Positions 4,503 through 20,983 of a stretch of 30,373 nucleotides of DNA are shown here, piece after piece. The first letter of the stretch is position 1. Every line of letters begins with the position of its first letter. Source of the DNA: a virus. The stretch is from UHGV virus genome UHGV-0127428; one strand, given 5' to 3'. A program made the position numbers and the translations under genes. Below the pieces are notes generated by a model, which saw only the letters and a list, made by a program, of their open reading frames with translations, searched no databases and was not told where the DNA came from.

Positions 4503-4852
4503 TGGAGCCATACAGCCTCACACTCGATGAGGCCTGTCATTTTCTCAAGATATCCAGACCGACTGCCATTAACTGGATACGCACAGGGCGTCTTCAGGCA
4601 ACACGCAAAGATCCCACTAAGAATAAATCTCCTTACCTCACAACACGACAAGCCTGCATTGCGGCTCTTCAGTCTCCGCTGCATACTGTCCAGGTGAGCG
4701 CGGGTGATGGCATAACAGAGGAAAGAAAATGTCACTCTTCCGCAGAGGTGAAATATGGTACGCCAGTTTCACATTGCCGAACGGTAAAAGATTTAAACAG
4801 TCTCTTGGAACAAAGGACAAAAGGCAGGCGACAGAACTCCATGACAAGCTAA
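4502..4852 (+). CDS. xis: P22-type excisionase (Xis)
   Basis: ATG at 4502 overlaps the yfdT stop (taATGg). The 116-aa product ([38 protein letters not shown]...) resembles P22-family Xis and overlaps the int start, as is typical. Confidence 0.7.
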
Positions 4853-5892
4853 AGGCTGAAGCATGGCGGGTCAGCAAACTTGGTGAAATACCTGATATAA
4901 CGTTCGAGGAAGCGTGTGTCAGGTGGCTTGAAGAGAAAGCACATAAAAAATCACTGGACGATGACAAAAGCCGGATCGGATTCTGGCTTCAACATTTCGC
5001 AGGGATGCAACTAAGAGACATCACTGAATCAAAAATTTATTCAGCGATGCAGAAAATGACAAACCGGCGTCATGAGGAAAACTGGAAACTCAGGGCAGAA
5101 GCATGCAGAAAAAAAGGGAAACCTGTTCCAGAATACACGCCAAAACCAGCGTCCGTTGCAACGAAGGCTACGCATCTTTCATTTATAAAGGCCCTGCTAA
5201 GAGCCGCAGAGCGTGAATGGAAAATGCTTGATAAGGCACCAATTATTAAAGTGCCTCAACCGAAGAATAAACGTATCCGCTGGCTGGAGCCTCATGAAGC
5301 ACAAAGGCTGATTGATGAATGTCCGGAGCCATTAAAGTCTGTTGTTGAATTTGCACTGGCAACAGGCTTAAGACGCTCGAACATCATCAACCTTGAATGG
5401 CAACAAATAGACATGCAGCGCCGGGTGGCATGGATAAACCCGGAAGAGAGTAAATCAAACCGCGCAATTGGCGTTGCGCTGAATGATACTGCATGTCGCG
5501 TATTGAAAAAACAAATCGGGAATCATCACCGTTGGGTATTTGTTTACAAGGAAAGCTGTACCAAACCAGACGGAACGAAAGCGCCAACGGTCAGGAAGAT
5601 GCGGTATGACGCAAACACAGCCTGGAAAGCGGCGCTGAGACGAGCAGGTATTGATGATTTCAGATTTCACGACTTGAGACACACCTGGGCAAGTTGGCTG
5701 GTTCAAGCCGGAGTCCCGTTGTCAGTGTTACAGGAAATGGGAGGCTGGGAGTCTATCGAAATGGTTCGTCGATATGCTCACCTCGCACCTAATCACCTTA
5801 CCGAACACGCACGGCAAATAGACTCGATCCTGAACCCATCGGTCCCAAATTTGTCCCAGTCAAAAAATAAGGAAGGTACTAATGATGTGTAA
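4729..5892 (+). CDS. int: P22-type tyrosine integrase
   Basis: 387 aa; the N-terminus [27 protein letters not shown] matches my recollection of P22 Int. Catalytic signature present ([29 protein letters not shown]). Stop lies immediately before an att core copy. Confidence 0.9.
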
Positions 5893-5925
5893 CTTATTGA
5901 TTTAAATGGTGCCGATAATAGGAGT
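5893..5925. repeat. att core copy 1 (short): cttattgattt-aaa-tggtgccgataataggagt
   Basis: Its 19 nt tggtgccgataataggagt equal the reverse complement of the 3' end of tRNA-Thr (ACTCCTATTATCGGCACCA). Similarity to the tRNA stops after ggagt, where element B sequence begins. Same flank motif as copies at 18458 and 30324. Confidence 0.7.
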
Positions 5926-6067
5926 AAAACACTCGATTAATCTCGTGTTAATGCCATCACCTACGACCATTACTAATTGATTGAATCTTATAGAAAAATC
6001 ATCATTTTCTATGCGTCACAATCAATTTTCACATTACAAACGCTCCGACACTTTAGCCGGAGATTTT

Positions 6068-7345
6068 ATGAGATACAAGCCTAACCAATACTTAATCTGT
6101 GATTCTTACGGTAACTACTATTTAAGGATCACGCTGCCTGTGTATATGCAGCCCTTTTTTGAAGGAAAAAGGACGTTTGTCAGAAGTCTACACACAAGTA
6201 ATCTTCGTGTTGCACGTAGAAAGCGTGATCAGATTGCAGATGAATACCATTGCTTACGGGAGAGTGTTGCCCCTGTAAACAGCACAATAGAAAACACGCT
6301 GGAACTGTTACGCAGTAAGGCTAAATACGCCAAAACAGCTACCAGAGTGCAAGATACAGCGTCTTCGTGTCCGTCATTGCTTAAAATTCTTGAAATCTAC
6401 CTGACAATTAACAGCACGAAGAAGAAGCCAGCCACTTTAGCTAAGGCAAGAAAAGCGGTAGAGATGTTTCTCTCCTACCGTAAAAAGCCTGATATTGCAT
6501 TGCAAGATGTAAGCCGCACCACTGTTACAGGCTGGATTGAACACATGCAAAAAACTCTTTCACAACAATCAATTGCAAATTATATCAGTCCAATGGCCCA
6601 GCTATGGGAATTAGCTTCATCACGTTACCACGATGCGCCAGAAAGGGCGCTCTCCCCCTGGCGAGGGCATAGGCTTGATGTGGCACAAAGTAGAGAGAGC
6701 TACGAGGCATTTTCTAACAAAGAGCTATTGCAGGTGTTGCAAGTATTTTCCGGTAATTCAGCAGAAAACAAAGAAATGACGGCTTTGTGTCTTATCGGTT
6801 TATATACAGGTATGCGGATCAATGAGATAGCAAGTCTCACAATAGACGATGTGAAAGAGATCGAAGGTGTGCTGTGTTTTGAAATCACACAGGGAAAAAC
6901 GAAAGCTGCGGCACGTCTTGTGCCTGTGCATAGCCTTATCACTCCATTGGTGTTATCTCTTCGTGAAAAGCCTCACAATGGCTTTTTGTTCTATCACGCC
7001 AGCATTACAGAACGTGCTGACGGTAAACGCTCTACGTGGCATACACAACGATTTACAAGAGCTAAACGAAAGGCTTTAGGGGAAAAGGGAACAGAAAGGA
7101 AAGTGTTTCATTCTCTGAGACACGGAGTAGCACAGCTTCTTGATCGAAATCAAATTCCAGAGGACCGCATAGCTTTAATGTTGGGCCATCAGCGCGGCAA
7201 TACAGAAACATTCCGCACATATAGCAAGAATGCAGCTTCTCCAGTAGAGCTTAAAAAATATATTGAGCTTTTACGCTACCCTGAAATAGAGAAAGGCTTA
7301 TCAATCAATAAAAAATCAAATTTAAGGCGTAAAACAACGCTATAG
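6068..7345 (+). CDS. tyrosine recombinase/integrase of element B, distinct from the P22-type integrases
   Basis: Catalytic signature present: GMRINEIASL (Arg), HSLRHGVAQL (HxxR), GHQRGNTETFRTYSK (Tyr). Start chosen at the ATG at 6068 with ggag 6 nt upstream; the tool's TTG start at 5981 is less likely. Lies immediately inside the left boundary of element B. Confidence 0.75.
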   Translation: MRYKPNQYLICDSYGNYYLRITLPVYMQPFFEGKRTFVRSLHTSNLRVARRKRDQIADEYHCLRESVAPVNSTIENTLELLRSKAKYAKTATRVQDTASSCPSLLKILEIYLTINSTKKKPATLAKARKAVEMFLSYRKKPDIALQDVSRTTVTGWIEHMQKTLSQQSIANYISPMAQLWELASSRYHDAPERALSPWRGHRLDVAQSRESYEAFSNKELLQVLQVFSGNSAENKEMTALCLIGLYTGMRINEIASLTIDDVKEIEGVLCFEITQGKTKAAARLVPVHSLITPLVLSLREKPHNGFLFYHASITERADGKRSTWHTQRFTRAKRKALGEKGTERKVFHSLRHGVAQLLDRNQIPEDRIALMLGHQRGNTETFRTYSKNAASPVELKKYIELLRYPEIEKGLSINKKSNLRRKTTL

Positions 7346-7352
7346 ACGTAAT

Positions 7353-7386
7353 AAAGAGGCTTCAATATAGACTGATGCCTCTTTTA
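7353..7386. terminator. bidirectional terminator hairpin between convergent genes
   Basis: Stem agaggc / gcctct (7355-7360 and 7377-7382) with a T-run after it; lies between the end of the integrase (+) and the end of the 219-aa gene (-). Confidence 0.45.
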
Positions 7387-7425
7387 TGATTATCTCGTTA
7401 CAGAGCGTTTCATAGGCGTTTAAGG

Positions 7426-8085
7426 CTATTGTTTAAATACTGGCGTTACAACGTCTTGCCCTGGGCTTTTTGTATTTACCTGCATTTTAATCTGTCCCCC
7501 TACAGATTTATTTGGTGCTGTTTTTACCGCAATTGCGCTTGTAGTTGCTTTAGAGACAAGACGGATTTGCTCAAAATCAAGAGTAAACAATAGGCTTTCG
7601 CTTGCTTCTTCTTCATAAGACATGCCAACTAACACAACGTTGTCATAATTTTTTAACTCAGTGACAAGTAGGAAAGGTTGGCGACTGTCCATCAACTGAT
7701 TTAGGTATTCAAGCATAAGCATACGTCGATTGCCGTTAATTCCCGCATTCTTAATCATATCGGGATTGAGCTTCAATACGGTTTCAGAGATACGCCCCTG
7801 TAATGTGAACTTGTTATTCCGTATTTGAACATGATCACTAACTTCTGATCCTGATTCGACGGCATAGCTTGTAACGTCTGCATTTCGGCTAACTTTCGTC
7901 GATTCCACGCTATCAAATGATAATGCCTGGTAGTCATTGTAAGCAGCATTTGCACCACTGCCGAGGTTAGAGGTAATGATCGCAAAGCCGTTACCCCCTT
8001 TAGTTGTTCTACCGTTGCTATCGTTGCTTGTGCTGTTGATTTTCGCCTCAGTCGGGCGACCAATGGTTAACGGACCCATTGCCAT
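7426..8085 (-). CDS. hypothetical protein (219 aa), last gene of the capsid-like operon
   Basis: Good RBS (aagga) upstream of the ATG at 8085; Gly/Asn/Ser-rich N-terminus; no recognisable motif. Confidence 0.5.
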   Translation of the reverse strand: MAMGPLTIGRPTEAKINSTSNDSNGRTTKGGNGFAIITSNLGSGANAAYNDYQALSFDSVESTKVSRNADVTSYAVESGSEVSDHVQIRNNKFTLQGRISETVLKLNPDMIKNAGINGNRRMLMLEYLNQLMDSRQPFLLVTELKNYDNVVLVGMSYEEEASESLLFTLDFEQIRLVSKATTSAIAVKTAPNKSVGGQIKMQVNTKSPGQDVVTPVFKQ

Positions 8086-8132
8086 AATTTGTAATCCTTA
8101 TTTAAGGGGGCTAAACTGCCCCACAGTGATGA

Positions 8133-9974
8133 TTAATAGGTTGACCCGCCTGACATAACACCCAGCGTTAATAGCTTGCTAAACTCAGCGGAGGATGCCT
8201 TTGATTTGAAGTCGATAAATTCGCTCAATCGTCCGGTGTCTGATTCGATAGTTAGCGGCACTTCTGCATTTACTTGTAATTCTGGATTGAAGTTAATAAC
8301 AGGTGCAAAGGTGTAAGAAGGAGCCTTGAAAGCTTGTTGTGCTGCACTCTGTTTCAGATTTGCAATGTTTTGTCCTTCGAGACTGTATTGATTTACAGCC
8401 TGCGCCCCACCTACCGTTTCTTCTGGCATAAACCAGCTTTTAATAGTGTTAACCAGGGAATTGCTGTTATCTGGCTTAGTTGTTCCGGTGCCAGCGCCTT
8501 TATATTGATCAGGAGTGAGATTAGAAAGATTCTGCTTCATTCCTTCGTTAGATAGTGGCGGTGCATCCCCTAAATTCTTTTGAATAGCTGCCGTCTTCTC
8601 GTCGTTTTTCATCAGCCAGTTGATTGCTTTCATTACAGCGTTAACCAATCCGCCGATAGCCTCGCCTAATTTGGTAAACATTGGCAGCATTGCAACCATG
8701 CTCTTTTTAAACTCTTCAATCACTTTCGGATCAAGAGATTTCATAAAGCCATCAACAAAGGCGATCCCTTGTGAGTCAGAAAGCCCACTAAGTGCATTAT
8801 TCAGTTCACGGAATTTAATAACGCTTTCCTGTTGTGCCTGCGTTACCCAGCGCCCTGATTCTCGTTGTTCTCGTGCTGATTGTTCCACTTCTTTAGCGGA
8901 GCGTGTCCAGTATTTAGAGGTGAGCATCAAATCATCAGCCAGATCTTCCAGACGACTACCGATTTGTGCATCTGAATAGCCTTTAGCTACCATTCCCTGA
9001 ACTGCTTTACTAACCAGACCAGCCGGATTATCAGCAAAGTCTTTTAGATCCTTTTTAGTTAAGAATCCTTCATTCATTAAAGTATTGATGCCGCTATCGC
9101 CGCCCTTCCATTCTCCTTTACCTGTTTTTTTATCGACTACATATTCAGCCTCATCATAGCTTTTGGTTGCACGCTCACGCACATCTTTCATCTGATCGAG
9201 ATACTTACGTTTACCTTGATCCCCCATCATTGAATCAACGCCGTTTTTGTAGGCCCATTGCTCAATATTGTTCATCTGGTTAACGTCTACACCGCCCAGC
9301 TTCGCACGGCTATACAATTCTCCCAGCGTTTCAGCACTGGCAAAGCTGTTAGTAACAAATTCAGAGGCTTTGCTCATAGCCATATATGCAGCGCCAGCGC
9401 CTAAGCCACCCAGCATAACAGCCGCAGCACCGCCGCCAATACTCCCGCTACCCTTAACAGGTGCATAGGCTTTAGCGTGAGCGTTACGATTGCCATTAAT
9501 CTTACGTTGTTGCTGTTGTAGGCGTTTCATTTGGCTATTCATACGTGCCAGACTAATAGCGCCTCTTTCATATTGGAGGGCAATTTCTCTAGCCTGTGCA
9601 ATAGCTTTATATTGTTCCGCTACAGAAAGACGGTGCATTGCACTAATGCTTGATCCAACGTCTAAAAGCTTTAATTCTGCCTTCTCTTTGCGTGCTGCCA
9701 GGGCTTTTTGTTCTCTTGCAACTACACGTTGAGCGGCTAATTGTGCTTTAGCATTAGCTTTATCAGCCTGTGCTTGCTTTTTAGCAATATCGTCTACGTC
9801 TTTTTTTGCTTTAGCGGTTGATTGTTTATGTGTCTTAACACGCAATTCTATATCTTTCACAGCCGCCATTTGTTTACGAAGTTTTTCTACTTCTGCTTTT
9901 GCTTTCTCTAATGATGGTCGGTTAACTTCGAAGGTGACAACGTTCGAGAGGCGTGCCACGTTTAGCTCTAACAT
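8133..9974 (-). CDS. tape-measure-like protein (613 aa; coiled-coil N-terminus plus Gly-rich hydrophobic segment)
   Basis: N-terminal Lys/Ala/Gln/Glu-rich predicted coiled coil (KLRKQMAAVKDIELRVK...AKAQLAAQRVVAREQ) followed by GSGSIGGGAAAVMLGGLGAGAAYMA. This architecture is typical of phage tape-measure or internal virion proteins; assignment is by composition only. Confidence 0.4.
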   Translation of the reverse strand: MLELNVARLSNVVTFEVNRPSLEKAKAEVEKLRKQMAAVKDIELRVKTHKQSTAKAKKDVDDIAKKQAQADKANAKAQLAAQRVVAREQKALAARKEKAELKLLDVGSSISAMHRLSVAEQYKAIAQAREIALQYERGAISLARMNSQMKRLQQQQRKINGNRNAHAKAYAPVKGSGSIGGGAAAVMLGGLGAGAAYMAMSKASEFVTNSFASAETLGELYSRAKLGGVDVNQMNNIEQWAYKNGVDSMMGDQGKRKYLDQMKDVRERATKSYDEAEYVVDKKTGKGEWKGGDSGINTLMNEGFLTKKDLKDFADNPAGLVSKAVQGMVAKGYSDAQIGSRLEDLADDLMLTSKYWTRSAKEVEQSAREQRESGRWVTQAQQESVIKFRELNNALSGLSDSQGIAFVDGFMKSLDPKVIEEFKKSMVAMLPMFTKLGEAIGGLVNAVMKAINWLMKNDEKTAAIQKNLGDAPPLSNEGMKQNLSNLTPDQYKGAGTGTTKPDNSNSLVNTIKSWFMPEETVGGAQAVNQYSLEGQNIANLKQSAAQQAFKAPSYTFAPVINFNPELQVNAEVPLTIESDTGRLSEFIDFKSKASSAEFSKLLTLGVMSGGSTY

Positions 9975-10008
9975 GTTAATTGTTTCCCTGTATTATGATT
10001 GTTGTTTG

Positions 10009-10206
10009 TTATTGTTTTTTAGAACAATAATATTGGATTGCTTCGAAAGTGCTGCACCCAGTCTGAAAGACACGCTGGCGCACATTATTTGCATCAATTT
10101 CTAAAAGGCGGCAAAGCGCCGATGTGTTTATAACTGATTCCTCGCTAATAGCTGCCAGTTCTTTTACAGATTTAAGAATTAATGCCTGTGAATTTTCTGT
10201 ATTCAT
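10009..10206 (-). CDS. small hypothetical protein (65 aa from the ATG at 10206)
   Basis: Internal ATG with gagag RBS; the longer 91-aa frame starts in a hydrophobic, unlikely leader. Confidence 0.3.
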   Translation of the reverse strand: MNTENSQALILKSVKELAAISEESVINTSALCRLLEIDANNVRQRVFQTGCSTFEAIQYYCSKKQ

Positions 10207-10360
10207 TGGTTTTCTCTCACATATATATATTTTTATTTGGGTTTGTAGACAGTAGAAAAACAAAAAGGGCAAGAGACAGCGCATATTTTGCTTATATGAT
10301 TATCCCTTACCCTTATTGCCCCGATTATTTCCAGACGTAGGGGAACGTCTTTAACACTTT

Positions 10361-11389
10361 TTACGCTACTGTGATCTGCACAGAGAAGCCAACACCGTGG
10401 TTAACCACAAGCGAGCTATTCTCGGTCACTACGTGCACTGCGTCGCCGCGATTCGATTCGAAAGCATAGCTGTAATACTCTTTAGCGCCTTGAGACAGCA
10501 GATCGAAGGAACTGGAAGGCGCGCCATAGATAGCTTGGTAAACACCTCCACCCTTAGCGAATTTAGGCACGGCTACAGCGTCAGCGGTCATATGTGCCAG
10601 CAGCAGCGGATCAGTCACTTTGATCAGATCAATGTTAGTTCCTGGAATGGTGAAAGTAGTTACGCCAGGCAGCAGAGAACGCACATTAAACACCACGTTT
10701 GCATCGTCTACAGGGCTTGCATATTGGAACGCATTGACCATGCCAACGCTGTAACGAATAGCGTTGAATGCCGCAGGTTTACAGAACACAACAACACGCT
10801 CAATGGTTGCAGCCTGGCTTTGTGCCTTAGCAATCATATCCGTATGCATCTGATCAAATTGCTTGAATACGGTCATTGTGTTGGTGCTGGATGCGTCAAC
10901 GGTTGCAGTCATTGGAGACACACCGAACAGAGTGCTGTAATCGATCAGAACATCGTCAGTTTTCGGGGTATGTGTCTTGCCAGAGAACAGAGAAGCCGCG
11001 AGGATGCTTTCTTTAGTGCGCTGGAATGCAACATTGTGTTTAGCGATATATTCCGCATACAGATCCGGCAGTGTTTCTTCAATAGAGCTTCCGGCTTTGC
11101 GTTTGCCTTGCACGTCCTGCGGTTTGATCAGGTCTTCACGCAGGAAGTAAGGGATTTCAATCAGCCATTCTTCCCCGTTCTCACGCTTAGTAACGTTATG
11201 CTCAGAGCTAAAACGGCTTGTAGGATGGTTGAACAGAGATTCATTGCTCTCGATAAGCTGGGAAACAGCCACTTTGTGACTTTCTACAGGCACAGGATCA
11301 GTAAAATCCAGAGTAGACAGTAGGTAATTGCGTGAGTCGTTTAATTCGAACAGTGGAGCAAGATCAACCACTTCATTTCCGATAATCAT
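10361..11389 (-). CDS. candidate major capsid protein (lambda gpE-like family)
   Basis: 342 aa, similar in size to lambda E (about 341 aa). The C-terminal ...GFSVQITVA resembles the recalled lambda E C-terminus ...FVSVQLA. It is directly preceded by a small decoration-sized gene, as D precedes E in lambda. Strong RBS. Family assignment is tentative. Confidence 0.45.
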   Translation of the reverse strand: MIIGNEVVDLAPLFELNDSRNYLLSTLDFTDPVPVESHKVAVSQLIESNESLFNHPTSRFSSEHNVTKRENGEEWLIEIPYFLREDLIKPQDVQGKRKAGSSIEETLPDLYAEYIAKHNVAFQRTKESILAASLFSGKTHTPKTDDVLIDYSTLFGVSPMTATVDASSTNTMTVFKQFDQMHTDMIAKAQSQAATIERVVVFCKPAAFNAIRYSVGMVNAFQYASPVDDANVVFNVRSLLPGVTTFTIPGTNIDLIKVTDPLLLAHMTADAVAVPKFAKGGGVYQAIYGAPSSSFDLLSQGAKEYYSYAFESNRGDAVHVVTENSSLVVNHGVGFSVQITVA

Positions 11390-11405
11390 TATTATTTATT
11401 CCTTC

Positions 11406-11780
11406 TTAAGATGTGAAAACAGAGTGGAAGCCTTCAAGCTGGAAGCCTTTAGCAGCGAGAGCTGCAATAGCAGCTTCTTTTACAGCGCCTTCGGCATTCA
11501 GGGCATCAGCTTTGATGCAAACGAGTCCGGCATTAGCACGAAGCACGTTAACTGTTTTATTTGAATCAGCAGTTACGAAGTCAGACACAACGACAAGAAC
11601 ATCAGCGCCGCTAACATATTTAGCGCCGGATGAATCAATGAGGTCGCCGCACGTTACATCTTGTGCAAGTGCTGCAAATTTTTTGCTTTCTACAGCCGCG
11701 TAAGGGTCGGTTGCATAGCTCACTACGTCAGTGATGCTTTTACGATGTGGGAAAACATCGCTTAATTTTAAAATAGCCAT
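11406..11780 (-). CDS. candidate head decoration-like protein (124 aa)
   Basis: Size and position immediately upstream of the capsid-like gene; Ala/Val/Gly-rich beta-type composition; aagga RBS. No direct motif evidence. Confidence 0.35.
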   Translation of the reverse strand: MAILKLSDVFPHRKSITDVVSYATDPYAAVESKKFAALAQDVTCGDLIDSSGAKYVSGADVLVVVSDFVTADSNKTVNVLRANAGLVCIKADALNAEGAVKEAAIAALAAKGFQLEGFHSVFTS

Positions 11781-11989
11781 TATTTTTCCTTAGATTGTTT
11801 GATTTGTTGAGCTTTAGCATTAATCAAATCTTGGTGAGATGGTTTATTGCTTTCAGCCTTATAAAGACGTTCACACTGTTTCTTTAATTCTGTGGGAGTG
11901 ATGCCAAGCGCGTAGGCTGTAGCATTCAACACATCTTCAGTTAGTGTTAACTTTTCATTGCCATATTTCAGGATAATTTCTTGTTTCAT
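11780..11989 (-). CDS. small hypothetical protein (69 aa), first gene of the capsid-like operon
   Basis: ORF whose stop overlaps the start of the next gene; lysine-rich and helical in composition. Confidence 0.35.
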   Translation of the reverse strand: MKQEIILKYGNEKLTLTEDVLNATAYALGITPTELKKQCERLYKAESNKPSHQDLINAKAQQIKQSKEK

Positions 11990-12983
11990 TTATATAACGA
12001 TTCCATTATGTTGGAATTTAATAAATCCCCCAGGCTATAAGAGGTTCAATCTGACAATAGCGAGGGGGATTTATTAACGTGTCGGGCAATACACAGCGAT
12101 AAGTAAAACCTTGAGGAGGTTTTAAACGTATCTCTAAGAATGCTTATTAAACATGCTTAAAGATAGGTTTAAAGGGTGAACAGATATTCCTGAAAACATG
12201 CTCTTAGGAAAACATGCGGAATCAATCAGGAATATCTATTCGGGGCGCGGTGGCTAACCGCTATCTTTCATGGTGTGGATGCACCAGTCAGATTTTAAGG
12301 AATCACTATTCCAATCTACTCACAGATTAAATTTTTAATAATGATTAACTACACCAACAGTAATCTACCGTTTCAGAAAATCGTTTTTACAACCAAAGCT
12401 TATAGATCCGCATTCTATAAAACCCGTTTTGCTATCAATATTTCCAAAGTTTATTGCACCATTCTTAGCTAAACTCTCTCTACTTGCGGCTAACGCTATG
12501 CAGATGATAGTTTTTTGACAACAACTTAATAGATTATTCTGTTACTAACTTCTGTCATTAAATAAGAGTTTAATGATGTTAGTAAATAGTTATAAAATAT
12601 AACTATCAGTGTAAGGCTCTTTAATGTTTTCGGACAAAATAAGGAGCTTTAGGATAAGCATAGATGAAAAATAAGAGCGGGAAGGGCAAGGAGATAACAC
12701 CTACCCGCTTTTATCAAAAATTAAGCACAATGCCTAACAACATTTATCAACACAACGTAGAAACAATCAACAATCAAAGAGGGAGTTATGATTATTCTAA
12801 AACTTCTTGAGGGGATGGAAGGTAATATTTGTTAGAGGTTAATGCCATTCAACCTTTGAGGCTATCACCTTCCATATGCAGGGATTTATGACAGGAAAAG
12901 GATTAACACCAGTCAAAACCTTTTTATCTACCCCTAATATTATTATATAATGAAATCGTTATAAATGCAAATGATTTTTATTA

Positions 12984-13292
12984 TCATTTAGAGAAAATAG
13001 CACTTTTTGCTAAATCATCTACTAATTGCTGAATCTCTTCACTTGCAGCCTTTAACGTGCTGGCGGTGTCTGTGATGGTTTGAGTGCACATCTTGGCATT
13101 GTCCTCAATTAGCTCTAAATCTCTCACCAGAGAGATAAAATCGTCAAGGCTTACATTCACCTTCATTAAGCTAATAACGCATTGAGAGAGCGTGTAATCG
13201 CATAAATCTGAATAGGCTTGATTTATTCTTGTTTGTAGTGAGATAGTCAGATCTAAAAGTTGTTCCATTGCATTGCTAATATCTTCTTCCAT
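12984..13292 (-). CDS. hypothetical acidic protein (102 aa)
   Basis: aaggag RBS; start overlaps the stop of the upstream gene (taATG); no recognisable family. Confidence 0.45.
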   Translation of the reverse strand: MEEDISNAMEQLLDLTISLQTRINQAYSDLCDYTLSQCVISLMKVNVSLDDFISLVRDLELIEDNAKMCTQTITDTASTLKAASEEIQQLVDDLAKSAIFSK

Positions 13293-13495
13293 TATGCGGC
13301 TTCTCCTTGTAATGCATCATTAATCATATTCAATACGATGTTAAAAGGTGTCTTGAGCGTCAGCACTTCATCACGGTAACGCTCTAATGCTTCGTAGTCT
13401 TCTGTTTCTTTTGCCAGTCGGATTAACTCAGCATAGTTTTTTGCATCAGACAGGATCATCTGAAATAATTGTGTTTCTTGAATATAGCCAATCAT
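13292..13495 (-). CDS. hypothetical protein (67 aa from the internal ATG)
   Basis: The internal start MIGYIQETQ... has a strong aaagga RBS; the longer 81-aa frame begins in the intergenic region. Confidence 0.4.
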   Translation of the reverse strand: MIGYIQETQLFQMILSDAKNYAELIRLAKETEDYEALERYRDEVLTLKTPFNIVLNMINDALQGEAA

Positions 13496-13552
13496 TATTT
13501 TTCCTTTTTTGAATATTTTCATTGGGCGCTTATACATACGCCCATCATTTTA

Positions 13553-13933
13553 TTAGTTAGAACGTTTGTTAGAAGCTAATGTATCTTCTAAATGAGCCAT
13601 CAGATCGACTTCCGATGCACCACCTACACAATTATTGAAAGCGTTAAATCCCAAAAAATGATGATAGGAGCTAAACCCTAAAAGCTGCCAACGTTTCAGA
13701 GTGCCATCAGAAATGATAGTTTGTTTTCTTGTTCTTGGGCGAAAGTAAACGCCTGGCATTGACTGGATTATTTCTAATTCTTCATCGCTTAATTCAGGGG
13801 ATTCTGTTTCAAGAATAAAGATTATCTCTTCCCCTGGATCGTTATTGGTGTGTGTCGGTGGACGTTGTCTTTTTGAATTGAAATTACTGTTTTTTTCAAT
13901 ACGTTTTAAGTTATTACGTTTCTTTTTTCCCAT
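13553..13933 (-). CDS. hypothetical protein (126 aa) with a basic N-terminus
   Basis: Strong RBS (aagaggga); N-terminal MGKKKRNNLKRIEK...; no recognisable family. Confidence 0.45.
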   Translation of the reverse strand: MGKKKRNNLKRIEKNSNFNSKRQRPPTHTNNDPGEEIIFILETESPELSDEELEIIQSMPGVYFRPRTRKQTIISDGTLKRWQLLGFSSYHHFLGFNAFNNCVGGASEVDLMAHLEDTLASNKRSN

Positions 13934-14116
13934 TTTCCCTCTTTTTATGTGGATTATAAAAACTTAATGTCATTGTTACGATGAATATCGCCATAAATGC
14001 ATTTGCCATATGTATTGCCCGATCTGTTGTTATTGATTGTTTGTGATAAACAATTCAAAATCTTTGTTTAATTTCAAAAGACGAAATGTAGTGCTGTTAT
14101 AAGCCATTTATTCTCC

Positions 14117-14686
14117 TTAGAATGGTATTGAATCGTATATTTCACTTTTTTCTCTTAGAGATATTATCAGATCGTGAAAAGCCTGTTTCTCAAGATAGAT
14201 ATTCTTTGAATCTAATGCTCGTTTTACAAAATCTTCTGTTTCTTCGTGCGGTGGTTTCTTCTTATCAAGGGAAAGAAGCCAAGTAAAAATTTCGGGCCGC
14301 TCAGGGAACTCTGATTCCTGTATTTCTTCTTCAACGATGATTTCGGAAACATTCAATATTCCATTAGATTCGTCTTCTTTCTCAGAAGGATCAGGTAGTG
14401 ATGATTCTCCTTTTGGAATATCAAGCACTCGATAAAGGTTAGAGCTTCCTGGTCGTGCATCTTTTATAATTAATCCCATTTCGAGCAATTTCTTAACCCT
14501 TTCTTCTGCTGCTCTTGGTGTTATGCCAAAAACATCGCCTATCTTAGCGTAAGAGGGAAATGCACGATCAAACCCTCTCAAATAGCAGTAAAGGTTTTTA
14601 GCACTATCTGTAAATTTATGCCCGTTTACTTGGCTTATTTTTAGAATCCACATAGGAACTTTTACAAATTGTTCTTCATTAATCAT
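14117..14686 (-). CDS. replication initiator-like protein (winged-HTH Rep family)
   Basis: Start set at the ATG at 14686 with aaggag 8 nt upstream. N-terminal region (LYCYLRGF...AFPSYAKIGDVFGITPRAAEERVKKLLEMGLI) is typical of plasmid/phage wHTH replication initiators; acidic C-terminus. An iteron array lies 1.3 kb upstream. Confidence 0.5.
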   Translation of the reverse strand: MINEEQFVKVPMWILKISQVNGHKFTDSAKNLYCYLRGFDRAFPSYAKIGDVFGITPRAAEERVKKLLEMGLIIKDARPGSSNLYRVLDIPKGESSLPDPSEKEDESNGILNVSEIIVEEEIQESEFPERPEIFTWLLSLDKKKPPHEETEDFVKRALDSKNIYLEKQAFHDLIISLREKSEIYDSIPF

Positions 14687-14739
14687 TAAAAATCTCCTTG
14701 ATGTAATCACGCTCTACGGCGCTACTATGGTGATAAAAA

Positions 14740-14910
14740 TCACTTGCTTTTGTTTGAGAGTGTTTCAGCCTCTCTTTTCAACATATCAAGAATGTAATCT
14801 GTAACAGTGATACGTTTACTTCTGGCTTCTTTAAACAACACCTGAAATACTTCATCAGGAATATGAAAGCAAGTGCGTGGTTGTCTTTTCTTTTCTGTAG
14901 TTTCGCTCAT
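14740..14910 (-). CDS. small ribbon-helix-helix (CopG/Arc-like) regulator candidate (56 aa)
   Basis: MSETTEKKRQPRTCFHIPDEVFQVLFKEARSKRITVTDYILDMLKREAE fits an RHH pattern (beta strand then two helices); strong RBS; immediately upstream of rep. Confidence 0.4.
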   Translation of the reverse strand: MSETTEKKRQPRTCFHIPDEVFQVLFKEARSKRITVTDYILDMLKREAETLSNKSK

Positions 14911-14931
14911 AGTTTTCTCCTTCTCCTGTTA

Positions 14932-15108
14932 TTATTCTTTCTCTGCCTTACGCAGTTCATCAATAATTTTTAGTGCATCGTCAAAGCATTTTTCACGCTC
15001 TGGATAACCACAGCGTCGCGCTGTGTTCCTGTTCATCCTTACTTTAAAACGATTAATCTCACCACGTTTCCAGGCTTCAACTACATCCTGTGGAGTAAAA
15101 TATTTCAT
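14932..15108 (-). CDS. small hypothetical protein (58 aa)
   Basis: ATG with a perfect aggagg SD; first gene of the rep operon. Confidence 0.35.
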   Translation of the reverse strand: MKYFTPQDVVEAWKRGEINRFKVRMNRNTARRCGYPEREKCFDDALKIIDELRKAEKE

Positions 15109-15960
15109 TAATTAGCCTCCTTATTCTATTTGGTTAAAAGAAAAAACACCTTGCAAGCCTTGTTGGGCTTCAAAGTGCGGTGCATTGGTTTAATTACTTA
15201 GAGGATAAGAATGTTTTCTGTCCCTAATATTACTTTACCACGACTAAAAGCTTTTGTCAACCCCTAGCCATAAAAATATTGATCATTTTCAGTGTGTTAT
15301 AATTTTTCTTAGCAATTCGTGCTCTTACGAGTGCTCCTATTCTTCCTTATTCTCTAAAACGCTCTAAAACGCCCTCTGACGAGGTTTTGATAAATACAAT
15401 ACATTCCCTTATGTAGAGGCTGTTTAGCTCGCCTACGGCTTGATTTAAGCGGTAGAATCTTATTTAACCTTCAACTACTAAAACCATTCTTTCTTTTTTG
15501 TTTGTTGTTGGTTGTTGTCTGTGTCTATGTGCTAACATCGCTAACGCGTAGCACACAAGGTTATTGCACTCGTCAGAGTATTGCACAATAGATTTTCTCT
15601 TAAATAGATTGATGATCGTTAGATGGTAGTTAGTTAATTATCGTTATGCGCACAGCGCAAGACTATTTAGCCTTACGCAAGCCGTAGGCTATTTGCACAT
15701 AGTAGATTACATATTCGTTGTGAGCGGCATTAGCGAACATAGATCTACTAACTAACATCAACAAACAAAAACTATGTGTTATGACAAGCAGTCTAACGAT
15801 TAACACTCTAACTTGTGCAAGGTTCTGGCGAATGCCAATAGATTAAGGGATAGTCAAGGACTCCCCTAACGGGTATCTCTATAATTATTCTTTAAAGATA
15901 AAAGAATTTATAAAAGATAATTTAATTGTAGTTTGATAGTTGATCTAATAGGTAACAAAA

Positions 15961-16096
15961 TTCTGTAGGGGTGGCTAACAGTTTTCTGTGGGGGTGTATA
16001 ACATAATTCTGTTAGGGTTGGGGTAACAGTTTTCTGTTAGGGTGCATATTTCTTTAAAAGTTAAGGATAACAGAATTCTGTGGGGGTAGTTCACAG
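15961..16096. repeat. iteron-like direct repeats (five copies of TTCTGTnGGGG...), candidate replication origin
   Basis: Copies start at 15961, 15984, 16007, 16032 and 16076, mostly 23-25 bp apart, consensus ttctgt(a/g/t)ggg(g/t)t; set in AT-rich noncoding DNA upstream of the rep operon. Confidence 0.6.
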
Positions 16097-16480
16097 TGAC
16101 CTACCGTTACATCCATTTATCACATAACATCTGTGCAATGATCTTCTAAAAGTGTTTCTTGCTACCAAAATTAAACATCTAAAACAGGCTTAAATTCAAT
16201 GTAATTGATGATTAATCCCTGTGTAATTCCTACGTAAAAATCCAATGAAAAGTAGCTTAAAAAGTGCAATGTTAGCTTTCTTCACTTTTACATCACTTTC
16301 GCAAAGCCGCATTACACACGGCTTACAGAGCACTATCAGAAATTGTTGATTAAAAATCAATCTATTATTTGTCGAACAAGTTTCCTTTAATGCAACAAAA
16401 AATTATTTTTTCAAAATAAACACACTATTTAATAGCTTGCTAATTTTACCAAAATGTAACTACATGATTCTCATGCAAGA

Positions 16481-16586
16481 CGTGTAGTGATAAAGCAGGC
16501 TAAATCACCACACTAAAAACCTTCGAATTTCGTAGTGAAAAAAGTCCTTTACACACCTAATCAACACGATCAATAATCACTACACG
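16481..16586. promoter_or_regulatory. candidate res-like recombinase binding region (11-bp inverted repeat)
   Basis: cgtgtagtgat (16481-16491) and its reverse complement atcactacacg (16576-16586), plus repeated atcaacac / atcaccaca motifs, immediately upstream of the serine recombinase gene. Confidence 0.25.
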
Positions 16587-16612
16587 CAAATCAACACAGA
16601 AGGAAAATGAAA

Positions 16613-17164
16613 ATGGCTAATATTGGATACATTAGGGTATCGACTGTCCAACAAAACACAGACCGTCAATTAGCTGGAGTAACTCTTGATAAAGTCTTTG
16701 AAGATAAAGCGTCAGGCAAGAATACCCAGCGCCCACAGTTTGAGGCAATGATGAACTATGTGCGTGAAGGTGATGTTTTGCATGTTCACAGCATTGATCG
16801 ACTTTGCCGTAATACAGCCGACCTACTGGCAACGGTTGAGCAATTAACAGAGCGCGGCGTGTCTGTGCATTTCCATAAAGAAGACTTTAAGACAGGGAAG
16901 AACTCTCCCGCAGGGAATATGATGCTCACAGTGCTTGCAGCAGTGGCACAAATGGAACGTGAAATGATGCTTGAGCGGCAACGTGAGGGGATCGCCGCAG
17001 CTAAGGCCGCTGGACGTATAGCAAAACGTGGTAATGGAAAAGCAATTGATCGAGCGGGAATTGTTGCCGCTCTCGCGAATGGTGGATCAATTCGGAGCGT
17101 AGCAAAAGATTTCAGTGTCAGCACACAGACGGTGCAACGTATCAAGAAAGAGCAGGAAGCGTAA
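16613..17164 (+). CDS. serine recombinase (resolvase/invertase family)
   Basis: N-terminal MANIGYIRVSTVQQ with the catalytic Ser, plus a C-terminal HTH-like tail (SIRSVAKDFSVSTQTVQRI). The start could instead be the ATG at 16607. Confidence 0.8.
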   Translation: MANIGYIRVSTVQQNTDRQLAGVTLDKVFEDKASGKNTQRPQFEAMMNYVREGDVLHVHSIDRLCRNTADLLATVEQLTERGVSVHFHKEDFKTGKNSPAGNMMLTVLAAVAQMEREMMLERQREGIAAAKAAGRIAKRGNGKAIDRAGIVAALANGGSIRSVAKDFSVSTQTVQRIKKEQEA

Positions 17165-17489
17165 TGCCTCCTGATATTTGAGAATTGTCGCTGCGTGGAC
17201 CTGACGCCGCTGATCTTCGCGTTAAACATTGATCACGTTTGCGCCGATTTCAGATAAAAAGGCAGCTATTAAGCAATACGTAACTTTTACAATTAGTGAA
17301 ATTATCTAAAACACAAGTTATATAGATGAGAAAATGAAATATTATCTTGAACAAATCAAACAAAACAACACATCATCTTGTTGACACCATGCAACGTGAA
17401 TAGTAAGCTATTATATGTGAAAATTTGCACATTGCATGCAATAAAAAATAAATGATACCTTATTGTTGTTAAATCAATAGGGGGTATCT

Positions 17490-17648
17490 ATGCGCTTTAT
17501 CTTATCCATTTTAAAAACCTGCAGAACCACAATTACTTTAGCTGTAATTGTTACCATCATATACCTCATCTATTTTACCCCTCGAGATAAAATCGATTCA
17601 CTAGCGATCATCGTTCATGCAATGGCTACATTAACTAAAAAACTTTAA
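17490..17648 (+). CDS. small hydrophobic peptide (52 aa)
   Basis: Strong SD (agggggt) before the ATG; MRFILSILKTCRTTITLAVIVTIIYLIYF... is a predicted single transmembrane helix; followed by a hairpin near 17663-17700. Confidence 0.35.
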   Translation: MRFILSILKTCRTTITLAVIVTIIYLIYFTPRDKIDSLAIIVHAMATLTKKL

Positions 17649-17714
17649 TAATTTCACTATCAGGCGCATAAACACATCTTTGATCGCTGGATGTGTTATG
17701 CGCCTACTGGTGAT

Positions 17715-17867
17715 TCAATCCTTAAGCCATTTCAACTCACTAAGGAGTTTTCTTTCTTCGTTCTCTCTCTGTTTACGCTCTAGCCAGGCTTTTCCTTCTG
17801 GCGTAGACAGGAACTTACGAGCGTGAATCTTGCGGTTATTACGTTTTATAGCTGCAATGTTTTTCAT
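17715..17867 (-). CDS. small basic protein (50 aa)
   Basis: ATG with gaggc SD; MKNIAAIKRNNRKIHARKFL...; convergent with the hydrophobic peptide gene. Confidence 0.3.
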   Translation of the reverse strand: MKNIAAIKRNNRKIHARKFLSTPEGKAWLERKQRENEERKLLSELKWLKD

Positions 17868-18457
17868 CGTGTTGCCTCTGTATTCATATGAAAATTAACA
17901 AGTTACATACTACACAGGGAGACTACGCATAAAACACAATACAAGTAAAGATACATTTTCAAGACAATAGGAGCCATAAAGCGCCTTTGATGGTTATACC
18001 AAAAAATAAGCGCCGTAGGCGTATCCACTAAAAAGGGCTTTTTCACAAAAGCTATGAAGTCTTAGCAGTTCTTCTCTTATCAGGCACCCGTTGTACTCCG
18101 GTGGACGAAACCGTGCTAGAGCTTGATTCTTTCCCGATCAAGTTAGGTTTTGAAGAGGTGGGCTTTGATCCACTATTGCACTTAAAACTCTTCCCATCAT
18201 TTAGCCTGTTTATCCTCTGCAACGTCTCACGACGTGTAGCATCATTGGACACCGCGCCAGGTGTGGAACATCTTGCTAAGAGTTTTGGTAGAAGGTTTAG
18301 AGACGGTGGCACGTCTTCCAGCTTCAAAGGAACTTGTTACGAGGTTGAGCCTGGGAACTACTCGCCCATACGTGTTACACTACCAAAGCCCATAACAACG
18401 TATAGGCGTTTGTAAGTGATAACAGAAGATACAATTTCTTAGAGAAGTTAAGCTAAG

Positions 18458-18519
18458 TTATTGATTTTCTTAATGGTGCCGATAATAGGAGTCGAACCTA
18501 CGACCTTCGCATTACGAAT
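18458..18519 (-). repeat. att core copy 2 carrying a 46-nt 3' fragment of tRNA-Thr (18474-18519)
   Basis: The reverse complement of 18474-18519 equals the tRNA-Thr(CGU) sequence from the anticodon loop to the CCA end (ATTCGTAATGCGAAGGTCGTAGGTTCGACTCCTATTATCGGCACCA). Similarity to the tRNA stops at 18520, so this is a displaced partial copy, not a gene. Flank ttattgatttt matches the other two copies. Confidence 0.8.
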
Positions 18520-18624
18520 CTGTAGCACCAATCATAACTATCTGTTTTAGCAAGCATTAACCGCATTCACTAAGCTATAGTTGATGGCACAAACAGAAAG
18601 TTGATGCATGATGTTGCCATGTGT

Positions 18625-18644
18625 ATGGCACAAATACGGCACAA
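18625..18644. repeat. 20-bp direct repeat atggcacaaatacggcacaa, also at 30271-30290; candidate integrase arm-type site
   Basis: Perfect 20-bp copy just inside each end of element C; a half-copy gatggcacaaa at 18583-18593. The right-hand copy lies within the 3' end of the int coding sequence. Confidence 0.4.
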
Positions 18645-18751
18645 CAATCTTAAAACATGTAGCCACGCATCCACAGAAGAGCACAAAGCCTTGCAATCCA
18701 GTGCAAAGCTTTGTGTGTCTCAGTTTTGTCTCATAGGTAACTCTGTGTTAA

Positions 18752-19042
18752 CTACGATGCAAGAATCCATACCAATAAGCATCCGATAATTGGGAAAGAA
18801 AAATCCATCAGGCTTGCCACATCCCATGCACGCGGATCAAAACCGCCCCACCACGGCATATTCATACGCTTGCCATGCCCGAACATTTCAATCCAGCGAT
18901 ATTCTGCCTGGGTATGTTCACGCGCAATGAAGAACGTACAACCGGCTATCGCTCCGTAAGCCCAGTTTCCGGTAAAAAGGCCAATCAGTACCTGCGCAGC
19001 CACAGCACAAAGCGCATGAAGTAAGGGGCTTATATCCATCAT
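18752..19042 (-). CDS. small integral membrane protein (96 aa, about three predicted TM helices)
   Basis: Hydrophobic segments LLHALCAVAAQVLIGLF, AYGAIAGCTFFIA and FSFPIIGCLLVWILAS; divergent from the GT2 gene. Confidence 0.45.
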   Translation of the reverse strand: MMDISPLLHALCAVAAQVLIGLFTGNWAYGAIAGCTFFIAREHTQAEYRWIEMFGHGKRMNMPWWGGFDPRAWDVASLMDFSFPIIGCLLVWILAS

Positions 19043-19323
19043 AAATTCTTCGACGAAACCACAGCATAATTTCTTTTGTTATTAAATCGGAAAACATTGT
19101 AACATGCGTTACTGGATTACTTGCTTCACTGTGAATGATATACATGATAGAATCTGCAACTCAAATCATATAAAACTTAAGCCGTTCCGCGTTTTATGCC
19201 CGTTGCTTCCACGGGCTATTTTCACAAAGATCACTCACAAAAATAATTATATTCACTTTTACTCTAATAAAGAATAAAATAATCAATCGTCAATTTGTAC
19301 CATTAATTTTGTTTCAAGCCTTC

Positions 19324-19352
19324 CCCGCTTTCGCGAGAATGCGGGGTTTTTT
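19324..19352 (+). terminator. rho-independent terminator-like hairpin
   Basis: ccccgc ... gcgggg stem followed by ttttttat, in the AT-rich intergenic region between the membrane protein gene and the GT2 gene. Confidence 0.4.
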
Positions 19353-19632
19353 ATATGGACATAACTTCCCACCCACTATTTGTACACTTATAATTCAGAT
19401 TCGCTGAAAGACGTTCAGAATGTACTTTGACAGATTTAATCATGTTTCACTTATCACCAACAAAATCATCACCAAGAAAACTATTGCACACATTAACTAT
19501 ACCTCGTCGCATTGCAGCATGGTATGCAGATGACATCATTAAATGATGTTACAATGCTGAGATATAATGCTTCATGTTATGATGATAGCATTTTGAACAT
19601 TCATAAACACTACTAATATTAGAGGCTACGAT

Positions 19633-20937
19633 ATGAGAAATGATATTACTGCCACGTCTGAAAATATAGTGGATTTTTTTAAACAGACATCATTAAATGA
19701 CTACATAAAAAAAGCATGGCTATACAATGAAAATTGCTTCGTTGTTGATTTTGAATATAAGAGCGTGAAATTTGCTCTGGATTTCTCATATGATCAAACA
19801 ATCGATAAACAAAATTTAAATGTTGATTTCGTACTAAGAAGCAATCCGTTTAACTTCACAATTGCGAAGGGGAAAAATAAAGAACGTATATCATCAGAGG
19901 CAAATCTTACATCTGCATTGGCTTCTTCCCTTCTAAAAATAACAAGTGTAATTAACATCATTAACTCTTGTCGCCCTATTGATGTTAGTGTAGTTATACC
20001 TGTACATAACCGCGAAAAACTTATTCTTGAATGTATTAACTCACTTAATAACCAAACAATTAACAAGGATCGTTTTGAGGTTGTTTTCATCGATGATTGC
20101 TCAAGTGACAAAAGCATTGCCGCTATAGAATATAATATATCACCAGATATTAATTACAGAATTATCCGCCGCGAAGTTGGTTCTGGCAACGCTTCAACTC
20201 CACGCAATGAGGGTATAAAATCAGCAAAAGGTCGTTATATTTTTTTCATGGATTCTGATGATTATATTGACGAAACTCTTCTTGAGAGAGGGATGCAAAT
20301 TGCTGATAAAAATAACAGTGATGTTGTTTACTTCAAAATTGCATCAGATGGAAGTCGTGAGGTGCCGATCCGTCCATACAAAGTAAAAATTGTAGATAAA
20401 GCCGATATAACCAAGCACCATCTATTGCGGTCATTAACTATATTCAAATTCTTCAGAAGAAACATGCTTAAAGAGCATAACATACTCTTTAATCCTGCTA
20501 TCACTGTAGCTGAAGATAAAATATTCATGGTTCACGTTTTGTCTGTGGCCAAGAATATATCCATTCTTGCCGACAAAGATTATTATCACATAACACTTCA
20601 TGATGGAAGTCATTTATCACGACAAAAATTCCCTCTTGAGGATAGGCATTTCATTCTCAACTCGATCATTAACACTATTTACTTTTGCGAAAAAACGGAT
20701 GAAGAAAAGGCCAAGCTTTACAATGCGTGGCTGGTGATATGCCTTGAAATGATGGAAAAGGTATGTGGTAAAGCAGGTGGCAACGAGCAAAAGAAACGGA
20801 TGTTCTTTAACATGCTTTCAACAGCTTTCAATATCCGCTCAGATTTAGTAAATCAGGATATGATTTATCCCCCTCAGCGTAAGTTCATCAAACCTTTTTT
20901 ACAAAATAATTATGAAGGTTTTATAGCTGAAATTTAA
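19633..20937 (+). CDS. family-2 glycosyltransferase (GT2) with an N-terminal extension of unknown function
   Basis: GT2 core VSVVIPVHNREKLILECINSLNNQ...FEVVFIDDCSSD...YIFFMDSDDYID with a DxD motif, preceded by about 115 aa of unknown sequence; no obvious TM segment; very AT-rich codon usage. Confidence 0.75.
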   Translation: MRNDITATSENIVDFFKQTSLNDYIKKAWLYNENCFVVDFEYKSVKFALDFSYDQTIDKQNLNVDFVLRSNPFNFTIAKGKNKERISSEANLTSALASSLLKITSVINIINSCRPIDVSVVIPVHNREKLILECINSLNNQTINKDRFEVVFIDDCSSDKSIAAIEYNISPDINYRIIRREVGSGNASTPRNEGIKSAKGRYIFFMDSDDYIDETLLERGMQIADKNNSDVVYFKIASDGSREVPIRPYKVKIVDKADITKHHLLRSLTIFKFFRRNMLKEHNILFNPAITVAEDKIFMVHVLSVAKNISILADKDYYHITLHDGSHLSRQKFPLEDRHFILNSIINTIYFCEKTDEEKAKLYNAWLVICLEMMEKVCGKAGGNEQKKRMFFNMLSTAFNIRSDLVNQDMIYPPQRKFIKPFLQNNYEGFIAEI

Positions 20938-20943
20938 AACATT

Positions 20944-20962
20944 GCCCAGCATGTAGCTGGGC
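20944..20962. terminator. hairpin between convergent GT2 and tailspike genes
   Basis: gcccagc atgta gctgggc perfect 7-bp stem; lacks a strong T-run. Confidence 0.3.
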
Positions 20963-20983
20963 ATACATTAAAAGTATCACATG

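Follow-up and report, generated by a model that had tools for sequence, protein, structure and literature searches.

The thrW region examined here raises the question of what kind of integrated element combines its own integrase and replicon with a handful of virion-type genes. The stretch analysed, UHGV virus genome UHGV-0127428 (30,373 nucleotides; hereafter the window), is an Escherichia coli thrW region in which three elements (A, B and C) lie in tandem, and the middle one, element B, occupies positions 5926-18457 (12,532 bp). Its GC content of 40.0%, against 49.7% and 43.1% in the flanking pieces, bears out the visibly AT-rich interval described when the DNA was read without database searches (hereafter the sequence-only reading). 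Judged by sequence comparison, element B is a member of the putative E. coli satellite family of Barth, Dunham and Seed 2023 (PMC10448857). We consider it highly probable that it is an integrated phage satellite exploiting virulent myoviruses of the Stephanstirmvirinae along the life cycle proposed below. The candidate helpers are ~150-kb Phapecoctavirus phages (phAPEC8, Mt1B1_P17 and Schickermooser), while sister elements would use Justusliebigvirus phages (phi92, inny and muut). The satellite interpretation of the sequence-only reading is thus strongly supported by links to these phages, but the helpers it had in mind (lambdoid or P22-like phages, with induction by mitomycin C) are probably wrong, as the evidence points to virulent 150-kb myoviruses. 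The element itself was already known, and what we add to it is modest.

The published family comprises 224 putative satellites. Its members have genes for decoration, capsid, tape measure and baseplate proteins and an integrase, with a resolvase in some, and the family was predicted in 2023 to parasitise large virulent phages of the phAPEC8/phi92 type (PMC10448857). Element B has an integrase gene adjoining the left attachment site (attL), whose core is the 3' end of thrW. It encodes a capsid protein, a tape measure, a baseplate component and a putative decoration protein, and lacks terminase, protease, head-tail adaptors, alpA and Pri-Rep. Left-end sequences given in Table S6 of the same paper match window positions 5905-6090, and the att_WT sequence matches except for bases in the flank left of the core. 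Genomes listed in that table are also among our matches: HF572917.2 (L009) has the same architecture, and CP023349.1 (H25) covers 80% of the 12.5 kb at 95.5% identity, amounting to BLASTn homology of at least 10 kb. Hence the proposal that the interval represents a new class of satellite does not stand, since near-identical elements have been in print since 2023 (Fig. 8 and Table S6 of PMC10448857).

The ends of element B are real, because the whole interval recurs as a single block in other E. coli genomes (coverage 97-100%, identity 97-99.7%) amid different neighbours, with thrW directly to the right and the vat island to the left. The sequence-only reading had placed an att core of 33-35 nt at both ends; the repeat is real, but that length is specific to the window, and the strict core is ~20 nt. 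The final 19 nt of the attL core are the 3' end of the tRNA-Thr gene thrW on the minus strand, and positions 18470-18509 are identical to 30334-30373 at the window end, where thrW itself begins. In genome L001, attL and attR have only ~20-21 nt in common; the longer repeat is a feature of the tandem array in this window.

Family members were found in about one in seven complete E. coli genomes (762 of 5,426), including strains of extraintestinal pathogenic (ExPEC) and avian pathogenic E. coli (APEC), and 877 of the 878 matching places in E. coli are chromosomal. Genes are intact in the best-covered copies listed, and hundreds of E. coli genomes share the compact 12-13-kb architecture with intact open reading frames (ORFs), which is found at two or more integration sites. 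Some copies carry insertion sequences, and relatives also occur in Klebsiella variicola and Dryocola. In the K. variicola relative (L033), no Dit-like gene was called after the tape measure gene, where just a 42-aa ORF is present (13763-13891), and an HNH protein and a type I restriction-modification system are encoded nearby. Another copy, on an ENA metagenome scaffold (L011, 6166-19637), has thrW and proA on one side and a truncated LysR gene and xdhC on the integrase side, a layout that suggests a chromosomal rearrangement between satellites at the two known integration sites.

To identify gene functions, ORFs of at least 50 aa were scanned against Pfam, PHROG and NCBIfam (Table 1). The capsid, tape measure and 219-aa proteins all have their best phage matches in the Stephanstirmvirinae, and for the capsid-like and tape-measure-like ORFs the profile searches support the virion relationship suspected beforehand. 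The major capsid protein is 25% identical over its full length to the phAPEC8 capsid protein and matches Phi92_gp124 in the PDB (4e-9). The tape measure is 24-31% identical to those of Stephanstirmvirinae, with a conserved N-terminus, MLE(L/I)N..SNVVTF. Its first 22 residues (9909-9974, minus strand) read MLELNVARLSNVVTFEVNRPSL as compared with MLEINASKISNVVTFKVDKNSL in the helper, far closer than the remainder of the protein (24%), which hints at a common helper-encoded binding partner. The 219-aa protein matches Pfam Dit_like (1.2e-27), is 51% identical to Phapecoctavirus proteins and, in the PDB, matches the Phi92_gp135 chain (5e-54) as well as 'tube initiator' chains (9cuy and 7yfz); we infer that it is a homologue of phi92 gp135, i.e. 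a tube initiator. NCBIfam named none of the structural proteins of element B.

The arrangement of these genes follows that of the candidate helpers. The phAPEC8 module runs terminase, portal, gp116, decoration, capsid, neck, sheath, tube, chaperones, tape measure (662 aa) and gp103, and the satellite keeps a subset in helper order, [124 aa]-capsid-[65 aa]-tape measure (613 aa)-gp103 homologue. The 65-aa ORF occupies the position of the helper's 72-aa gp105, just upstream of the tape measure gene, and no similarity was found between the two. In overall composition, the 40% GC of element B compares with ~39% reported for the helper phages. Within the satellite family, the capsid and 124-aa alleles are deeply diverged, with 17% and 27% identity, respectively, between the window and L009.

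The 124-aa ORF is the least certain member of this module. Its family carries the label Dec in PMC10448857, and the sequence-only reading likewise called it decoration-like, a label that could not be confirmed: no family in the scan matched it, and its alignment to phAPEC8 gp115 by hhalign has a probability of 2%. BLAST against phAPEC8 gp115 gave nothing, a profile search of the PDB gave nothing relevant, and an AlphaFold2 model from a 14-sequence alignment reached a predicted local distance difference test score (pLDDT) of 50, too poor for a fold search. The 124-aa protein and phAPEC8 gp115 (L005, 8105-8503) both end in VFTS after a similar AAL-containing stretch; their overall similarity is not significant.

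At the nucleotide level, only two short segments (355 bp and ~80 bp) match among 50,697 phage records, so that element B is not a fragment of a known complete phage; both segments lead to a single phage subfamily. Just past the serine recombinase gene it carries what appears to be a copy of the end of a helper genome. Positions 17172-17245 are 81-87% identical to ~65 Phapecoctavirus genomes, and in Schickermooser the match lies at 277-350, straddling the junction between the terminal repeat and unique sequence. The two ends of the Schickermooser record repeat each other over 329 bp, and a terminal repeat of 328 bp was reported by Korf et al. 2019 (PMC6563267). The 329-bp repeat ends TCGCGTTA^AGCAC, its right physical end aligns with 17224|17225 of the window, and WPEC1 has the same arrangement. 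In some sister satellites (e.g., L010) the module is replaced, the replacement beginning at most 5 bases from 17224|17225, and in L010 the replacement holds a segment 95.7% identical to positions 318-363 of phi92, whose left terminal repeat is annotated at 1-343; the phi92-type copy of L010 lies at 7770-7824. All four sequences compared conform to TGATATTTG-N36/37-TCGCGTTA^AGCAC, with both phage repeat boundaries at the same base. Exactly one such copy, always in the same orientation, is present in each of the 16 E. coli satellite loci examined, and across the 5,426 complete E. coli genomes the Phapecoctavirus type is present in 257 and the phi92 type in 428.

These observations suggest that 17172-17245 is likely a terminase recognition and cleavage site copied from the helper, which would account for the packaging of an element that has no terminase genes. 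In the main text of PMC10448857, none of the terms 'pac site', 'terminal repeat' and 'iteron' appears. One locus (L024, 4142-4196) has a hybrid copy, the left half of the phi92 type and the right half and post-cut sequence of the Phapecoctavirus-satellite type, suggesting recombination within the junction site. In phi92-type satellites the serine recombinase gives way to a module (L010, 6769-8261) encoding a 183-aa protein without a Pfam match; an apparent 'inversion' in L010 proved to be this replacement of the recombinase module by unrelated DNA.

A second link to the helpers lies in the replicon. The Rep and iterons recognised by the sequence-only reading are both upheld, the former by family matches (Pfam HTH_36 and HTH_24; phrog_270 replication initiation protein, 1.5e-8) and the latter by a repeat search that returned five iterons. 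Pfam RepA_N did not match Rep at E <= 0.1, and RepA_N was assigned to the satellite Rep by HHsearch in PMC10448857. Over residues 1-105, Rep shares 99% identity with domain 1 of gp053 of Phapecoctavirus Mt1B1_P17, and the corresponding 105 codons are 99.2% identical in DNA (355 bp) to the start of its gene; Rep itself has no nuclease match. The iterons vary with the Rep allele, being TAACAnnnTTCTGTnGGGGT for the window allele, ACCTAGGAAATGAGTTCCTA for P0073 (L009) and GTAACGAnnnGTTACA for P0028 (L011), a switch observed in L008/L009 and in L011. Among the 16 loci, which are few and not independent of one another, the Mt1B1_P17-type allele occurs with the Phapecoctavirus-type junction in 6 of 6 cases and the inny-type allele with the phi92-type junction in the single case available, and P0073-type alleles occur with both (3 and 3).

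The phage protein that shares this domain, gp053, consists of two winged-helix domains followed by a region that matches MUG113/T5orf172 and resembles phage proteins annotated as homing endonucleases. It can be likened to the nuclease Odn of phage ICP1 because both combine a Rep-type DNA-binding domain with T5orf172; Odn carries a copy of the DNA-binding domain of RepA from the Vibrio cholerae satellite PLE and cuts the PLE origin (PMC8263062). The resemblance to Odn is itself already in print (PMC10448857). In the inny nuclease, domain 1 is 93% identical over 140 residues to Rep allele P0028. Domain 2 is conserved in all three phages compared; over 93 residues it shares 89% identity with the P0073 group, the commonest Rep allele of the satellites and one carried by elements of this same family. 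The legend to Fig. 8 of PMC10448857 describes the second domain as without detectable homology to the cognate satellite repA genes. On these comparisons, domain 2 appears to be directed at another replicon, and a common one, in which case the nucleases would be bispecific.

The links described so far also bear on the possibility that element B descends from a temperate relative of phAPEC8 or phi92 and persists only as a decayed remnant, fixed and immobile at thrW, with its virion genes as leftovers. Such a remnant could well retain only a subset of a helper-type structural module in helper order and collect insertion sequences, as some copies have, and mobility was not seen, the attP junction being absent from JGI metagenomes and the stand-alone contigs proving to be integrated. 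We nevertheless regard this explanation as very unlikely. The intact architecture recurs in hundreds of genomes, at no fewer than two sites and in other genera, and its modules (Rep and iterons, capsid allele, junction copy and small recombinase) are shuffled and not eroded. Phage nucleases bearing near-identical copies of the Rep domain imply an ongoing conflict, and temperate Stephanstirmvirinae were not found among the phage matches.

We therefore return to the satellite interpretation and propose the following life cycle. The tyrosine integrase, observed together with its att sites, would place the element at the 3' end of thrW, and infection by a helper would lead to excision. Replication would then be driven by Rep from the iteron origin, as suggested by the anatomy of the replicon and the co-variation of Rep and iterons. 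Particles would combine the satellite capsid protein, the probable decoration protein, the tape measure and the tube initiator with a portal, protease and scaffold, neck, sheath, tube, baseplate and fibres supplied by the helper; this mixed-particle model is proposed because of the genes present and absent and their homology to the helper module. The helper terminase would cut the 12.5-kb DNA within 17172-17245 (after 17224) and package it, and the small serine recombinase might, more speculatively, resolve multimers or recircularise the DNA. The phage would counter with its Odn-like nuclease, in which copies of the satellite Rep DNA-binding domain are joined to T5orf172 and which presumably cuts the satellite origin, as suggested by the analogy with ICP1 Odn acting on PLE.

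A more specific version of this scheme, to which we give roughly even odds, holds that the helper terminase packs unit-length DNA at the interchangeable junction into small satellite capsids, that the tails contain the satellite tape measure and initiator, and that the nucleases are bispecific, the conserved domain being aimed at the commonest replicon and the swappable domain at rarer ones. If true, virulent coliphages would here have their first satellite system whose packaging signal, replicon specificity and counter-defence are each legible in the sequence.

Several points weigh against the satellite interpretation. Papers demonstrating excision, replication, packaging or transfer of the family were not found in the literature, and a search of JGI metagenomes with two patterns for the attP junction of an excised circle gave no match, a weak negative. 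Satellite-only contigs of ~12 kb, considered as free or packaged DNA, proved to be integrated copies whose assembly breaks off at repeats (Logan contig L030, of 12,139 bp, for instance, breaks at thrW and the att repeats), and IMG/VR matches considered as virus-particle DNA carry IMG isolate-genome identifiers and are apparently regions of isolate genomes. The T5orf172 and MUG113 scores of gp053 fall under the Pfam curated cut-offs, and the junction copy could be a regulatory site instead. The capsid protein is only 25% identical to that of the helper, and its fit with the helper portal and scaffold is an assumption. Finally, a tape measure and a tube initiator are unusual products for a satellite; they may form a satellite-specific tail lumen or ejection complex, or may interfere with helper tail assembly. 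We know of no other satellite family that encodes both.

An alternative view is that element B is chiefly an anti-phage defence island, whose divergent capsid, tape measure and tube-initiator proteins poison phage assembly, with transfer minor or absent. Diverged homologues of helper parts could indeed act as dominant-negative subunits, phages invest in a dedicated counter-nuclease, and published abstracts and PMC8263062 describe PLE as blocking ICP1 production and providing defence. An integrase with att sites, a replicon and a helper-type junction in every copy, in two helper-specific versions, are nonetheless better suited to a transmissible element, and no PADLOC model matched either of the ORFs of element B that were scanned, of 126 aa and 102 aa. 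Defence and parasitism can, moreover, coexist. We judge a predominantly defensive role unlikely.

It should also be considered whether element B could be an autonomous mini-phage or phage-plasmid that replicates and forms particles without a helper, an idea that might be suggested by its replicon, its capsid protein and the presence of some tail proteins. We find this barely credible. As the sequence-only reading had noted, portal, terminase, protease, tail tube and lysis genes are missing: no ORF scanned matched any of these families or that of the sheath, and baseplate and fibre genes are likewise absent. The phage-plasmid-like character proposed in the same reading finds no support: partition genes are absent from element B, and all but one of the E. 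coli copies are chromosomal.

Table 1. Features of element B and of the neighbouring element C, in window coordinates.
Feature	Position	Strand	Remarks
attL core, ATGGTGCCGATAATAGGAGT	5906..5925	.	20 nt; direct repeat with 18473-18492 and with thrW copy 30337-30356
Tyrosine integrase, 425 aa from RefSeq ATG	6068..7345	+	Longest ORF from 5981
Predicted tail tube-initiator/baseplate protein, 219 aa	7426..8085	-	Homologue of phAPEC8 gp103 and phi92 gp135
Tape measure, 613 aa (helper's 662 aa)	8133..9974	-	phrog_16051, 9e-32
65-aa ORF	10009..10206	-	Conserved and annotated in related elements
Major capsid protein, 342 aa	10361..11389	-	Pfam Phage_cap_E, 3.4e-18
Putative head decoration protein, 124 aa	11406..11780	-	Directly upstream of capsid gene; position matches helper gp115
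69-aa ORF, first gene of structural operon	11780..11989	-	Conserved in all related loci; no family match
Three small genes downstream of rep, 126/67/102 aa	12984..13933	-	Shine-Dalgarno; conserved in related loci
Replication initiator (Rep), 189 aa	14117..14686	-	N-terminal winged-helix domain (residues 1-105) and short C-terminal part
Two small leader genes of rep operon, 58 aa and 56 aa	14740..15108	-	Strong Shine-Dalgarno
Sigma-70-like promoter	15260-15232		Upstream of rep operon; TTGACA-17-TAAAGT with TG extension; best match in the element
Probable replication origin, five iterons	15953..16097	.	Consensus TAACAnnnTTCTGTnGGGGT; spacing 23-25 and 44 nt; 35% GC, intergenic
Small serine recombinase, resolvase/invertase type, 185 aa	16607..17164	+	Pfam Resolvase, 1.1e-38; phrog_125, 2e-62
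Putative copy of helper terminal-repeat/unique junction	17172..17245	+	Just past recombinase stop codon; predicted cut after 17224
Two small conserved right-arm ORFs, 52 aa (+) and 50 aa (-)	17490..17867	+ and -	Annotated in related elements; no family match
attR core	18473..18492	.	Inside displaced thrW 3' fragment beginning at 18474
Element C: family-2 glycosyltransferase	19633-20937		
Element C: tailspike-like protein, 797 aa	20984-23377	-	Only the last part of the head-binding domain retained; S74 chaperone domain

Both recombinases predicted from the sequence were recovered. The integrase, annotated as a tyrosine-type recombinase in L001, matches Pfam Phage_integrase (2.8e-17), DUF6538 (3.9e-9) and Phage_int_SAM_5 and the phrog_1 integrase family (8e-33); with the neighbouring P22-type integrase it has only a local match in common (27% over 89 aa). 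The serine recombinase is of the resolvase/invertase type, and in the Klebsiella and Dryocola relatives a small tyrosine recombinase takes its position. A search for an invertible segment flanking it produced no convincing inverted repeats bracketing the gene. We therefore favour a generic recombinase role (multimer resolution or recircularisation) over an inversion switch, because a tyrosine recombinase substitutes for it in relatives and an invertible segment was not found.

Among the small ORFs, the ribbon-helix-helix label given earlier to the 56-aa leader ORF could not be verified, as no family matched it, and Pfam and PHROG searches gave no match for the 126-, 67- and 102-aa ORFs. Nor did PADLOC detect a defence model in those ORFs of the flanking elements that were scanned. 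A scan for sigma-70 promoters returned 17 sites against 33 expected from shuffled controls and was used solely for the strong site before the rep operon. Upstream of the structural operon, 1 kb of 34% GC (11990-12983) has no ORF of at least 50 aa and no Rfam match; its length is kept in related elements, and a helper-responsive control region may lie there. Scanning the window for Rfam families and tRNA genes gave no match.

Element B is bracketed by two related P22-like elements at one tRNA site. Element A (1-5892) terminates in a second P22-type integrase (4729-5892). Element C (18520-30333) is the remnant of an internally deleted P22-like prophage. Its own P22-type integrase adjoins thrW, and the element, besides the genes in Table 1, encodes RecT, Ead/Ea22 and DUF551. 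Elements A and C have patches that are 70-89% identical (e.g., 3853-3943/25309-25399 and 4515-4569/28855-28909).

Phages of the phAPEC8 and phi92 types are discussed for phage therapy. A resident satellite that hijacks or blocks the phage, together with nucleases that beat particular replicons, could decide whether a phage succeeds on a given strain, and O104:H4 outbreak strains are listed in Table S6 of PMC10448857. Relative to the main text of that paper, we infer four additions, namely the junction copy with its two versions, the cognate allele of nuclease domain 2, the iterons of each Rep allele and the gp135-type tube initiator. The junction copy and the table of iterons and Rep alleles provide concrete sequences for experiments.

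How, then, does element B relate to systems already described? The VAT-PAI, a pathogenicity island next to thrW in avian and extraintestinal pathogenic E. coli, was reportedly described by Parreira and Gyles in 2003. In APEC and ExPEC genomes the element sits between thrW and the vat toxin gene, and it has probably been counted so far as part of that island. It differs in being a separate module with its own att sites, and in this window no vat gene adjoins it.

The view that element B fits neither the P4-like nor the phage-inducible chromosomal island (PICI) type of satellite proved sound, as the matching families are absent. Like P4-like satellites, it measures ~12 kb, is integrated, has its own integrase and replicon and presumably depends on a myovirus helper for virions. 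P4 itself lacks a capsid gene and carries a copy of its helper's cos site, whereas the sequence copied in element B is a terminal-repeat junction, and no ORF of element B matched a P4-type primase/helicase, Sid/Psu or a Delta/Ogr-type activator. Capsid-forming PICIs (cfPICIs), which use the tails of temperate helper phages, resemble element B in encoding their own major capsid protein and a probable decoration protein. They differ in having terminase, prohead protease, portal, head-tail adaptors, alpA and Pri-Rep, none of which was matched in element B in Pfam, PHROG or NCBIfam. These cfPICI marks are absent from the whole family according to PMC10448857, and tail-lumen proteins are not among the cfPICI signature genes listed there. 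Element B, unlike that signature set, does encode tail-lumen proteins.

A functional parallel is PLE of V. cholerae and its phage ICP1. PLE is likewise a satellite of a virulent myovirus with a modular Rep and origin, opposed by a phage T5orf172 nuclease that carries a copy of the Rep domain. To our knowledge, a capsid protein, tape measure or tube initiator of its own has not been described for PLE, and genes in common with element B were not found beyond the general initiator type. Domain identity between nuclease and satellite is 89-100% in the coliphage systems versus 42% between Odn and PLE1 RepA (PMC8263062), and the coliphage nucleases have two Rep-type domains, unlike Odn. Element B is thus PLE-like with respect to Rep, origin and Odn, and relatedness by descent is not claimed. 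With the Barth-Dunham-Seed family, by comparison, it shares the whole gene set (integrase, baseplate, tape measure, capsid, decoration, RepA_N-type Rep and resolvase) and a tRNA-adjacent site, and it differs from that family in nothing.

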